From IMG/VR virus record IMGVR_UViG_3300030104_002421, positions 82,189-146,188 of that record: 64,000 nt of DNA, one strand, 5' to 3'. The notes under the pieces are model-generated. The model had not been told where the DNA came from. It saw only the letters and a program-made list of their open reading frames with translations, and searched no databases. The stretch is from a virus. This document shows positions 25,540 through 60,118 of the stretch, piece after piece (position 1 is the first letter of the stretch; every line of letters begins with the position of its first letter). Position numbers and translations under genes: made by a program.

Positions 25540-25568
25540 TTGACATTTATATCAAAATATGATAGGAT
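25540..25568 (+). promoter_or_regulatory. Sigma70-type promoter giving a probably leaderless mRNA
   Basis: AGGC-TTGACA-N17-TAGGAT, ATG 7 nt downstream. Confidence 0.7.
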
Positions 25569-25575
25569 ACAGACA

Positions 25576-25938
25576 ATGGCATTAATTTATACACATAACA
25601 GTTCACCAAGACGCTTCAAGCGTGTTGTAAAGAACAAGAAATATTATGAAGCGCTTGCTGAGAGAGACAAGTTATTGAGACGATTAGGTATTGACCCCAA
25701 CAGAAAGATACCAAAATACAGACCAGAGAAAATGAAAATACATACTGCCCCTGTGGCTCAATTGGTAGAGCAGACGATTTGTAATCGTCAGGTTGCAAGT
25801 TCAAGTCCTGCCGGGGGCACCAAACCTGTTTCTAATTGGCGATTAGAAGAAAGCAAAAAGTTTACTGTAGCACCTGCTTATAATAAAGGTGCATATCAAG
25901 TAATAACAAAAGAAAACATAAAGGATATAGGCAAATGA
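25576..25938 (+). CDS. Conserved hypothetical phage protein containing an in-frame tRNA
   Basis: MALIYTH start; C-terminal TVAPAYNKGAYQVI...DIGK motif; stop overlaps next ATG. Confidence 0.7.
   Translation: MALIYTHNSSPRRFKRVVKNKKYYEALAERDKLLRRLGIDPNRKIPKYRPEKMKIHTAPVAQLVEQTICNRQVASSSPAGGTKPVSNWRLEESKKFTVAPAYNKGAYQVITKENIKDIGK
25747..25822 (+). tRNA. tRNA-Thr(UGU)
   Basis: GCCCCTG/CGGGGGC acceptor + ACCA, GCTC/GAGC D arm, GACGA-TTTGTAA-TCGTC anticodon arm, TTCAAGT T loop (one A.C mismatch in T stem), 76 nt. Confidence 0.88.
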
Positions 25939-26249
25939 TTAGAATATTAACAATAGTATCTCTTATTGCATGGGGTGTATTTTTTTATACGAGTGCAAAA
26001 GCAAATGAATATACAGAAGCAGTTGTTGGTCATGTTATACAAAACCATGATAAGATTGACCATAGTGCTTTGTTACAAGCAGAGTTAACAAGACTAGCAC
26101 ATAGAAATAGTATTGACTTAATAAACATTTTACAAGATTATCTCCCTGCTATACTTGATGGTATAGCGGCGGATTTAAGACAAAAATCAGACTTGGAGTA
26201 TAAGTGCTCACTTCAACCTGATAATTATAAAAACAACGAGTGCAAATAG
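25935..26249 (+). CDS. Hypothetical exported protein
   Basis: Signal peptide ending AKA. Confidence 0.6.
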   Translation: MIRILTIVSLIAWGVFFYTSAKANEYTEAVVGHVIQNHDKIDHSALLQAELTRLAHRNSIDLINILQDYLPAILDGIAADLRQKSDLEYKCSLQPDNYKNNECK

Positions 26250-26896: not shown

Positions 26897-27225
26897 AACA
26901 ACCAGGTCCAGGTGTAGCATTGTTATTAACTATAACATTGATACTTGCAATTCTTATGTTTAGTTATAAAGCAGAAGGTAAAGAAAATCTACATTGTGTT
27001 ATAGAAGTTATCTATGATGAAAGTTTAGAAAACGAAGTAAGTAGAAGAATGATATGTAGAGACGGAGAAATTCCAGGTCAACCTGGGTATTGGCAGTTAT
27101 TTGCTGCCTTTTATTATAATGGTGTTAGTGTGCCTGAATACTGCCGTTATGTTAAAGGAGATAATCTTTTTAGAATACCTAACAAGATATGTCTAAACGA
27201 AGATGGCACATGGAGGGACGGATGA
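26893..27225 (+). CDS. Hypothetical exported Cys-containing protein
   Basis: Signal peptide, four Cys, C-terminal CLNEDGTW resembling neighbour. Confidence 0.55.
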   Translation: MKQPGPGVALLLTITLILAILMFSYKAEGKENLHCVIEVIYDESLENEVSRRMICRDGEIPGQPGYWQLFAAFYYNGVSVPEYCRYVKGDNLFRIPNKICLNEDGTWRDG

Positions 27226-34536: not shown

Positions 34537-35226
34537 ATGTTTAATCACATTACCCCAACAGGTGATATGCCACCTTTAAAAGCAAAAAATGTATCAGGTA
34601 AAAGATTTTATGAACACCTGGAAACCAAAGAAGTATATCCTTCTATCACAAGCGTTTTATCTATTAGACAAAAACAAGGTCTTATAGAGTGGCGTAAAAA
34701 AGTTGGTGATGAAGTTGCCAACCATGTTATGATAACTGCTGCCAATAGAGGTACAGCAGTACACAATATGGTAGAGGATTATCTAAACAATCTTAACATA
34801 GATGAAAACGAGAAGTATAAAAAACAATTTCTACCTAGAATGATGTTTCAGGTTCTAAAACCTGAATTACAAAATATAAATAATATTAGGCTACAAGAAG
34901 CCCAAATGTACTCAACAGATTACACCGTGGCAGGTCGTTGCGATTGTATTGGTGAGTATGAAGGCGTACTATCAATTATAGATTTTAAAACATCTAAAGG
35001 AGATAAAAAGGAAGACTGGATAGAAAACTATTTTATTCAAGGTAGTGCTTATGCAGAAATGTACGAAGAACACTTTGGCGAACCTGTAGAACAGGTAGTA
35101 ATATTAGTTGTAACGGAAGAAGGAACAACACAGGTATTTAAGAAAAGTAAAAAAGACTATCTACCTCAATTAAAAGACGCTATAACAGACTTTTACAAAT
35201 GGGTAGAAAAAAATGAAAAAAATTAA
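34537..35226 (+). CDS. PD-(D/E)XK exonuclease of T4-like phages
   Basis: YPSITSVL, RGTAVH, AGRCDCI, IIDFKTS, YFIQGSAY. Confidence 0.88.
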   Translation: MFNHITPTGDMPPLKAKNVSGKRFYEHLETKEVYPSITSVLSIRQKQGLIEWRKKVGDEVANHVMITAANRGTAVHNMVEDYLNNLNIDENEKYKKQFLPRMMFQVLKPELQNINNIRLQEAQMYSTDYTVAGRCDCIGEYEGVLSIIDFKTSKGDKKEDWIENYFIQGSAYAEMYEEHFGEPVEQVVILVVTEEGTTQVFKKSKKDYLPQLKDAITDFYKWVEKNEKN

Positions 35227-35611
35227 AGAACTATCATTGTTAGTATTTTTACTAACATTTATTATAATTGTTTCAGTATGGACAACATCAGCAGCTGCTG
35301 AAGGACCAAAGTATGATTTATCAAAAATGAAGCAGAGACAAGTACCTGCTTATTGTGGAGATACTGGGTTTATGTTTGAAACATCATTAGAATTATTTAA
35401 TGAATTACCAATTGCAGGTGCTGAAGTTAGAACGGCAGGAATGCCAGATGCTCCAATCATAGGTATCATTACTCTAACTTATAACGAAGATAGAGGTTCA
35501 GGTACTGTAATGATGACTATACCAGCAATAGGCGAGACATGTGTTCTAGCATATGGTATGAATTGGCAATTTTATAACGAAATTCATGTTGAAGGTAATG
35601 AGAGTAAATAG
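35213..35611 (+). CDS. Hypothetical exported protein
   Basis: Signal peptide, VPAYCG...CVLAYG. Confidence 0.6.
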   Translation: MKKIKELSLLVFLLTFIIIVSVWTTSAAAEGPKYDLSKMKQRQVPAYCGDTGFMFETSLELFNELPIAGAEVRTAGMPDAPIIGIITLTYNEDRGSGTVMMTIPAIGETCVLAYGMNWQFYNEIHVEGNESK

Positions 35612-35808
35612 TATGGACGGCGGGGCAGTACCGCCCACCTCCACCACAGACACGGGGGTGAAATAGGTTCGACAGCTATTAGAAATCGTGCTGGAGTGGA
35701 TAGTCCAAAGACTTAAAACTAAAATAAAAGCAAACTTTAATGAGTATGCATTAGCAGCGTAGGCTGTTAGGGGTTTGCCTTGTACCTTGCAACAGAAACA
35801 AGGCACCA
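35605..35808 (+). ncRNA. ssrA: Circularly permuted (two-piece) tmRNA, tag (A)ANFNEYALAA
   Basis: Acceptor piece GGCGG-GGCAGTA-CCGCC-CACCTCC-ACCA ends 35646; 7-nt spacer; coding piece starts GGGGGTG at 35654 (G3.U70); tag ORF 35730-35762. Outer ends approximate. Confidence 0.92.
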
Positions 35809-35824
35809 AACAAAGGAGATTGTT

Positions 35825-35959
35825 ATGATTGAAGTATTAGAAATTTTATTACCAGTTGGTATCATAGTTGCATGTGCTTATGGCATTGGGTATCTATCTG
35901 GAAGTGAGGCAACAAGAGAAATTTATAACCCAACATTGAGAAAGAATGATTTAAAATGA
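35825..35959 (+). CDS. Small membrane protein (44 aa)
   Basis: AAGGAG SD; MIEVLEILLPVGIIVACAYGIGYL; ATGA overlap. Confidence 0.6.
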   Translation: MIEVLEILLPVGIIVACAYGIGYLSGSEATREIYNPTLRKNDLK

Positions 35960-59144: not shown

Positions 59145-59642
59145 GTGAAAGACTTAAAGACTATTATAGAATCCAATCTGTATAAAATTTCATCTCAACC
59201 CAAATGGGATAACGCCTACTTTCTACCTATTAAACAAGCGAGTACAAGTGATAAAGGTCGCTTTGGTCAATCTGTCTTTGTAGATATACTGACAGAAATA
59301 GGATACAATGCGGTCATAGAGAATAATGGCATAGGTGATTATGATGTAAAGATACGACAATTACCTACAAATATAAGAGTGGAAGTCAAAACAGCGACTA
59401 TAGATGTAGGAGGTTCTTTTCAGTTTAATTCTATTAAGAAAGGTAATTACATGTATGATTATGTATTTTGTTTAGGCATATCGTATAATGAGTTATATTA
59501 TGATTTTATATCAAAAGATTTTGTGGAGAAAACATTGACAACCAATATGACCACGGAAGGTGGTGGTTTCAAATATACGAGACGACTGGATAGACAATTG
59601 ACATTTGAGAATTTAGAAAACACATTAAATACATTCATATAA
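59145..59642 (+). CDS. Restriction-endonuclease-like PD-(D/E)XK protein
   Basis: KGRFGQ, GDYDV, RVEVKTAT, FQFNSI, YDYVFCLGI; GGAG SD + GTG. Confidence 0.6.
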   Translation: MKDLKTIIESNLYKISSQPKWDNAYFLPIKQASTSDKGRFGQSVFVDILTEIGYNAVIENNGIGDYDVKIRQLPTNIRVEVKTATIDVGGSFQFNSIKKGNYMYDYVFCLGISYNELYYDFISKDFVEKTLTTNMTTEGGGFKYTRRLDRQLTFENLENTLNTFI

Positions 59643-59650: not shown

Positions 59651-59744
59651 GCGGTCTTGGTGGAAAAAGGTAGACACGCCTTCTACTACGAATTGAAGGT
59701 GACTGAATAAGTTATTGTAGGATCATACCCTACAGACCGTACCA
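59651..59744 (+). tRNA. Non-canonical tRNA-like RNA (Leu-type body, ACG in extended anticodon arm)
   Basis: GCGGTCT/AGACCGT + ACCA, GGTGGAAAAAGGTAGACAC D arm, CCTTC/GAAGG, long variable arm, GTAGG-ATCATAC-CCTAC. Confidence 0.75.
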
Positions 59745-59809: not shown

Positions 59810-60118
59810 ATGATTACTCTTACAGATAACGCTTACGAACATCTACGAGACCTGAGGGACCATCATGGTATGAAGTATGTACGACTAGAGGTAACCTCTG
59901 GTGGTTGTGCTGGGTTTGAATATAAGTGGTCGTTTACGGATGATGAGGCAAGAGACGATAAAGTCTATGATGATGTTCTCATTGTGCATAAAATGTTTGA
60001 GTTATATTTAATGAATACAGAAATAGATTATACAAAAGATGATTTTAATGCTAATCTAACATTTAGTAATCCGGCTGCAAAGAGTAGTTGTGGATGTGGC
60101 ACATCTTTTTCAATATAG
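59810..60118 (+). CDS. A-type Fe-S cluster carrier (IscA/HesB family)
   Basis: ITLTDNA, GGCAGFEY, NPAAKSSCGCGTSF. Confidence 0.92.
   Translation: MITLTDNAYEHLRDLRDHHGMKYVRLEVTSGGCAGFEYKWSFTDDEARDDKVYDDVLIVHKMFELYLMNTEIDYTKDDFNANLTFSNPAAKSSCGCGTSFSI

Follow-up and report, generated by a model that had tools for sequence, protein, structure and literature searches.

In genome annotation a stretch of DNA is taken to be either a tRNA gene or a protein gene, and pipelines and curators routinely delete open reading frames (ORFs) that overlap a tRNA. The locus described here raises the question of what is made from a piece of phage DNA in which a complete tRNA lies, on the same strand and in frame, inside an apparently intact protein-coding gene: a tRNA, a protein, or both. 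It is found in a stretch of 64,000 nucleotides (hereafter the window) that covers positions 82,189 to 146,188 of the IMG/VR record IMGVR_UViG_3300030104_002421, a virus of 146,188 bp that is rated 99% complete. The nearest cultured relative of the window is the Pelagibacter phage HTVC008M, a T4-like myovirus of SAR11, and the window is marine SAR11-type phage DNA. The answer argued for below is that this is probably a true dual-coding locus, in which the tRNA-coded residues serve as a floppy linker and any one transcript would give either the tRNA or the full-length protein. The features of the locus are collected in Table 1.

Table 1. Features of the locus and its surroundings; positions are those of the window.
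Feature	Position	Strand	Basis and remarks
Promoter-like site, sigma-70-type	25540..25568	+	TTGACA, 17 nt, TAGGAT with TG extension; consensus scan, 10/12 matches
Host ORF P0002, 120 codons + stop	25576..25938	+	ATG 25576, TGA 25936-25938; homolog of HTVC008M gp171
N-terminal conserved part, residues 1-46	25576..25713	+	Invariant I-Y-T near start, basic stretch, helix 21-36
Variable linker spacer upstream of the tRNA, residues 47-57	25714..25746	+	Poor conservation, length varies (98 alleles)
tRNA-Thr(UGU), 76 nt, CCA encoded	25747..25822	+	ARAGORN (anticodon TGT); Rfam RF00005, 68.2 bits (cut-off 29)
Bases with a double duty	25813..25824	+	3' acceptor strand + ACCA read as Gly-Gly-Thr-Lys of the GGTKP motif (read from sequence)
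C-terminal conserved part, residues 82-120	25819..25935	+	GGTKP and APAYNKG motifs
Downstream ORF, 104 aa, hydrophobic N-terminus	25935..26249	+	ATG overlaps the host ORF stop (ATGA 25935-25938)
Permuted (alpha-type) tmRNA	35543-35853 (also given as about 35551-35853)		Rfam tmRNA_permuted, 98.4 bits; alpha_tmRNA, 74.7 bits; ARAGORN

The complete tRNA-Thr(UGU) with an encoded CCA end that the initial annotation had reported was recovered by both ARAGORN and Rfam at the same position, and it is the sole Rfam-supported tRNA in the 146-kb phage genome. It decodes ACA, a codon that accounts for 60% of the Thr codons in the long ORFs of the window. The first base of the tRNA is codon position 1 of codon 58 in the host ORF, and the tRNA supplies codons 58-82 together with the first base of the Lys83 codon; this frame is open, as claimed, and residues 58-82 are exactly the peptide quoted at that time. 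According to the alignments, the GGTKP motif, of which the tRNA-borne bases form the larger part here (Table 1), is nearly invariant in alleles that lack a tRNA too, and in other tRNA-bearing alleles a short spacer lies between the tRNA and a separate copy of GGTKP.

A 94-nt tRNA-Arg(ACG) called by ARAGORN at 59651-59744 was considered as a second nested RNA gene, and it is probably a false call: the site is intergenic, between the ORFs 59145-59642 and 59810-60118, Rfam gave no match there even at E ≤ 1, and a genome-wide tRNA search returned only the nested Thr tRNA. As a separate observation, the Rfam tRNA model matches positions 91140-91210 of HTVC008M (NC_020484.1) with 49.5 bits, above the cut-off; under the loci inspected no tRNA is annotated in this phage, and the pelagimyophage paper gives it 0 tRNAs.

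The promoter-like site ahead of the ORF and the overlap of its stop with the next ATG, both noted in the initial annotation, are present (Table 1). Since the promoter-like site ends 7 nt upstream of the ATG, the mRNA that would be transcribed from it is probably leaderless or nearly so. The same layout, with a TTGAC box, a TATAAT-like box, 6-7 nt and the ATG, is common to many related alleles with and without a tRNA, which suggests that the gene is a leaderless early message; near-consensus boxes at this distance lie, for example, upstream of the loci L003, L012, L017, L070 and L103. Other arrangements were observed as well. The ATG of the gene overlaps the stop of the upstream gene (TAATG) in other alleles, and in a Thr-bearing clade (L016, L039, L040, L066, L076 and L078) the promoter is placed about 40 nt further upstream, the gap being filled by a hydrophobic, Trp-rich mini open frame of about 10 codons that runs through TAATG onto the gene start. 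On the other side, the downstream ORF is probably translationally coupled to the host ORF because its ATG overlaps the host stop, and the scan of the window found no terminator-like site between the host ORF and 27092-27108.

The initial annotation had taken the sequences on both sides of the tRNA to be one protein, and this is borne out by homologs in which no tRNA is present. HTVC008M gp171 (YP_007518037.1, 125 aa) aligns to both flanks of the window ORF with 51% identity, carries about 30 unrelated residues and no tRNA in its middle, and differs from the window in the C-terminal part at third codon positions. A total of 1,491 database relatives of 120-135 aa were found at E ≤ 0.001, more than 1,400 of which span both flanks, and the window ORF, with I-Y-T near its N-terminus and both GGTKP and APAYNKG in a single protein of about 120 aa, fits this gp171-like family. 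The C-terminal motif had been described as conserved in T4-like phages; its conservation holds in pelagimyophages, but it is not general to T4-like phages, the only cultured phages with the gene being HTVC008M and Mosig (Mosig_00174), both of them tRNA-less. Residues 82-120 contain no Met codon and no conserved start of their own and always share the frame of the N-terminal part, and reading through the tRNA is thus the simplest way to reach the C-terminal part.

The function of the protein is not indicated by its matches. PHROG family phrog_4593 matches the C-terminus of P0002 (E = 5e-6), and no Pfam, PDB profile or ESM Atlas match was obtained for P0002, nor any Pfam domain among the 1,491 relatives; the HTVC008M homolog gave only a sub-threshold PASTA match in Pfam. 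It was also observed that phrog_23857 matches residues 52-90 (window 25729-25845; E = 7e-4), over the tRNA-coded segment, and this family may be partly built from translated tRNA sequences. The AF2 model of P0002 is weak overall (pTM 0.28), with a confident helix at residues 21-36 (pLDDT of about 95 for residues 21-40) and the lowest confidence on the tRNA-coded residues (block means of 47-49).

How the family behaves across many genomes was followed in 56 loci from viral contigs and 80 from metagenomes, plus the window, compared as raw DNA and not as gene calls. The viral-contig set comprises every confirmed match, and the metagenome set the best 80 of 519 matches, a selection that favours intact genes. 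With that composition, 78 loci including the window carry a nested tRNA by ARAGORN, namely Thr(TGT) in 64, Asp(GTC) in 12 and Pro(TGG) in 2; deduplication left 98 unique complete genes, of which 47 have Thr, 10 Asp, 2 Pro and 39 none, so that the tRNA-less alleles whose existence had been raised as a possibility are indeed found. The N- and C-terminal parts lie in a single open frame through the tRNA in 59/59 unique tRNA-bearing genes (metagenome share again the best 80 of 519), and homologs thus keep the frame across the tRNA; these 59 genes span a deep divergence, with 40-66% amino-acid identity. Two samples that are not skewed towards intact genes gave the same picture: in the viral-contig set all 22 complete tRNA-bearing loci are open, two of them having been found via the C-terminal part alone, and in a protein-blind search of viral contigs with an anticodon-arm pattern 8 of the 119 sites fell in the gene family, all eight open and with both parts in the same frame. 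Length differences among alleles are multiples of three. The median gene length is 124 aa both with and without a tRNA, and the linker has a median of 42 residues with it and 45 without; the tRNA replaces linker rather than adding length.

How such a gene would be expressed can be outlined from this layout. An early, probably leaderless transcript would start at or beside the ATG at 25576, and ribosomes on it would read straight through the tRNA sequence and yield the full-length protein. In bacterial tRNA maturation, RNase P cuts the 5' end and nucleases trim the 3' end to the encoded CCA. Where no ribosomes cover a transcript or a part of it, the cloverleaf would be expected to fold and the host RNase P and 3' processing enzymes to cut it. 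Such a cut would cost the transcript its C-terminal coding part and leave a 171-nt 5' piece that lacks a stop codon; under ribosome cover, the cloverleaf could not fold and the transcript would be translated through. Each RNA molecule would thus become either tRNA or full-length protein, depending on whether folding and processing or ribosome cover prevails. It may be speculated that ribosome loading on the leaderless message sets the ratio of the two products.

The initial annotation went further and proposed a regulated protein-versus-tRNA switch, with the phage tmRNA clearing the non-stop 5' fragment. This is a possible, if unlikely, reading of the locus. A cut at the tRNA would indeed leave the 171-nt coding fragment described above, with a leaderless layout the decision could fall at ribosome loading, the same either/or logic was proposed for selB-selC (Mukai, 2021; PMC8124441), and the genome does encode a tmRNA (Table 1). 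However, the tmRNA also occurs where the nested tRNA does not: HTVC008M, whose gene has no nested tRNA, encodes the same alpha-type tmRNA at positions 145103-145414 of its record (83.8 bits). The suggested link is weakened by this, and the tmRNA is rejected as a specific partner of the nested tRNA. In addition, tRNA-less alleles share the promoter layout, and the interchange of Thr, Asp and Pro speaks against a feedback loop tuned to a single amino acid. For the phage tmRNA itself, ARAGORN gives the tag peptide ANFNEYALAA; the ORF 35213-35611 shares its last ~60 nt with the 5' part of this RNA.

The interchange of tRNAs at this site can be followed in detail. A tree of the flanks requires at least 14 changes among four states (Thr, Asp, Pro and none). 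The flanks of L005 and L010 are 95% identical, and one of the two loci has a tRNA and the other does not; L010 retains a remnant in which the two halves of the acceptor stem and some of the D arm have survived a 24-nt in-frame deletion, and this remnant stands out in a shuffle test (z = 4.0, p ~0.002). Weaker remnant signals were obtained by the same test in L103, L104 and L117 (p 0.02-0.05) and no remnant in HTVC008M, L008, L074, L115 and L118, and an nhmmer search of the tRNA-less alleles with Thr, Asp and Pro profiles gave nothing significant. Flanks and tRNAs also tell conflicting histories in a set of four taxa: by flanks the window groups with L058 (84%) and L003 with L005 (87%), and by tRNAs the window groups with L003 (100%) and L058 with L005 (92%). 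The conflict is clean, and it implies that tRNA cassettes were passed from one lineage of the gene to another without loss of the frame; Thr, Asp and Pro tRNAs, decayed remnants and unrelated linkers evidently replace one another among close alleles. One further locus, L124, contains at 305-380 a chimeric tRNA-Thr, the 5' half and N-terminal flank of which are of the L099 type and the 3' half and C-terminal flank of the L023/L097 type. The junction leaves its acceptor stem with mismatches, and either a crossover that took place naturally within the tRNA or a chimeric assembly of the 1.2-kb contig has produced it.

These exchanges invite a broader reading, in which the gene would be a dedicated carrier of exchangeable tRNA cassettes, the coding flanks would serve as homology arms for in-frame swaps between co-infecting phages, and ribosome loading on the leaderless message would decide for each molecule whether the tRNA folds and is released. 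We regard this as quite unlikely; were it true, the locus would have a built-in coupling of translational load to tRNA supply.

That the cloverleaf might be a pseudo-tRNA or tRNA-like element in the mRNA, for instance one for stability or recombination, with the protein as the only functional product, could be argued from the one T-stem mismatch of the window tRNA (A52-C62) and from the viability of tRNA-less and decayed linker versions; a U28-U42 mismatch is likewise seen in many of the related nested tRNAs. Against it stand features that are expected of working tRNAs. Among the 27 distinct nested tRNAs, the anticodon loop, the T loop and the CCA are invariant in 27/27: the alignment has T33, A37, G53-T54-T55-C56 and A58 without exception and an encoded CCA in all, with an anticodon loop of seven bases, U33, a purine at 37 and a T loop of the GTTCRA type. 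The stems of 18 distinct related Thr tRNAs are paired in 95% of cells, with changes on both sides in 10/21 pairs, as compared with 32-54% paired in slid controls of the alignment; the stem covariation is 0.392 against 0.110 in shuffles, and 0/500 shuffles were as high. The Rfam score of 68 bits, the presence of three different standard tRNA identities at one site, and the fact that this is the sole tRNA of the genome and matches its dominant Thr codon point in the same direction, and they make an idle cloverleaf very improbable.

The converse, in which only the tRNA would be functional and the ORF a dead relic or a chance open frame, can be weighed against chance baselines and against selection on the flanks. 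Frame 0 of tRNA-Thr(UGU) is intrinsically stop-free, and open frames over free-standing tRNAs do occur: 14/48 frames are open in the 16 free-standing tRNAs of one unrelated phage, and 7/83 (8%) of the free-standing tRNA-Thr(UGU) genes in other viral contigs lie under an open frame of at least 100 codons. None of these seven looks nested, since in five the tRNA is at the head and the frame is the upstream run of the downstream gene, and the remaining two are a frame of 100-103 codons in AT-rich DNA and one of 112 codons in DNA of 52% GC. By comparison, the window tRNA has one stop-free frame out of three and it is the one used, as is the single stop-free frame in 23/27 distinct nested tRNAs; in one tRNA-Asp type two frames are open, of which one lineage uses phase 0 and another phase 1. 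Because nested tRNAs are 76 or 77 nt long, never a multiple of three, the frame closes only through flanking bases. The nested open frame is more than chance.

Selection on the two layers was compared through nucleotide diversity and through dN/dS by Nei-Gojobori counts. With dS partly saturated, the C-terminal part gives a dN/dS of 0.15 in alleles that carry a tRNA and of 0.19 in those that do not, and the N-terminal part one of about 0.5 in both groups, which reflects only moderate selection. Diversity at codon positions 1/2/3 is 0.21/0.15/0.40 in the C-terminal part and 0.35/0.30/0.51 in the N-terminal part, with an excess at third positions in the flanks, whereas in the tRNA segment it is flat (0.17/0.15/0.18), without codon periodicity. 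The tRNA segment evolves as RNA, not as codons, and as protein it seems to be a passive linker, constrained only in having no stop and in its frame and length. A relic ORF is hard to reconcile with downstream coding sequence that is constrained as strongly as in the tRNA-less alleles, with length differences that are all multiples of three, and with a gene that is intact in 59 of 59 unique tRNA-bearing alleles despite their divergence (metagenome share the best 80 of 519); that reading appears already contradicted by the comparative data and is extremely improbable.

Equally little weight falls on two separate products, either with the N-terminal part ending at the processing site and the C-terminal part made by internal initiation, for which the in-frame GTG and TTG codons within the window tRNA might serve, or with the tRNA excised and the mRNA halves re-joined, because the two parts share a frame in every allele although separate translation needs no such match, the internal GTG and TTG codons are not kept from one nested tRNA to the next, the C-terminal part has no Met, and removal of a 76- or 77-nt tRNA would put the C-terminal part out of frame, an arithmetic that rules out excision with re-ligation of the message. 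An in-frame selfish repeat insert that is read through as a loop, of the type of the Rickettsia and Wolbachia palindromic elements, would be expected in many copies per genome, and the 146-kb genome holds only this one tRNA.

What is left is the dual-coding locus suggested at the outset, in which the flanks are under purifying selection, the tRNA stems covary and the frame is open in every tRNA-bearing relative examined. As judged from these sequence comparisons, both the tRNA and the protein code are kept by selection over the same DNA stretch.

Dual use of this kind has few precedents. Mukai predicted that selC, the gene for tRNA-Sec, is nested in the selB ORF of Alphaproteobacteria, presented it as the first nested tRNA in a bacterial ORF, and derived from sequence alone an either/or model in which processing yields a non-stop mRNA (Mukai, 2021; Int J Mol Sci 22:4605). 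The phage locus resembles it in three respects: a protein ORF encloses a whole tRNA of the same orientation, which adds residues of its own when translated; the start codon of the following ORF overlaps the host stop; and remnant tRNAs are found in some relatives. However, selC lies at the C-terminal end, as an extension that no conserved domain follows, whereas the phage tRNA is internal, with a strongly conserved C-terminal part downstream, and its acceptor stem and CCA encode part of the conserved GGTK motif. Moreover, the tRNA made from selC is the ligand of SelB itself, in a bacterial host; in the phage, Thr, Asp and Pro tRNAs are interchangeable and swapped between alleles, and there is no functional tie between tRNA and host protein. 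The phage locus works like the selB case and is not a member of that gene pair.

Other systems share single aspects with it. Mitochondrial tRNA genes inside protein genes, such as the tRNA-Lys within cox1 of Armadillidium vulgare that is cited in Mukai (2021; PMC8124441), are similar: in a compact genome, a coding region contains a tRNA in direct orientation, with tRNA and full-length mRNA as alternative products. That case differs in belonging to an animal organelle with reduced tRNAs of 60 nt and extreme compaction, and it is not known to have a family of alleles with exchangeable tRNAs. Within the phages, HTVC008M gp171 and Mosig_00174 have the same conserved N- and C-terminal parts, gene length and neighbourhood, and HTVC008M the promoter layout too, but their linkers hold no tRNA and no detectable remnant. 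The thrU-tyrU-glyT-thrT-tufB operon of Escherichia coli is transcribed from a single promoter into tRNAs and mRNA that are separated by RNase P and other nucleases. Co-transcription of tRNA and mRNA is common to both systems; in the operon, unlike the phage gene, the tRNAs lie upstream and do not overlap the coding region, and processing spares the message. A search of the literature, including the papers that cite Mukai (2021), found no published phage case of a tRNA nested in an ORF.

The single bacterial precedent, selB-selC, thereby gains a viral counterpart, in which the tRNAs are ordinary elongators and sit in the interior of the protein-coding sequence. Across about 100 alleles both readings of the DNA appear to be under selection, to the point that the acceptor stem and CCA of the tRNA themselves spell out a conserved protein motif, and the locus illustrates how far a constraint on two levels of one sequence can go. 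It also illustrates how phages acquire and exchange tRNAs, and it would offer a clean natural system in which translation competes with RNA folding and processing on a single transcript.
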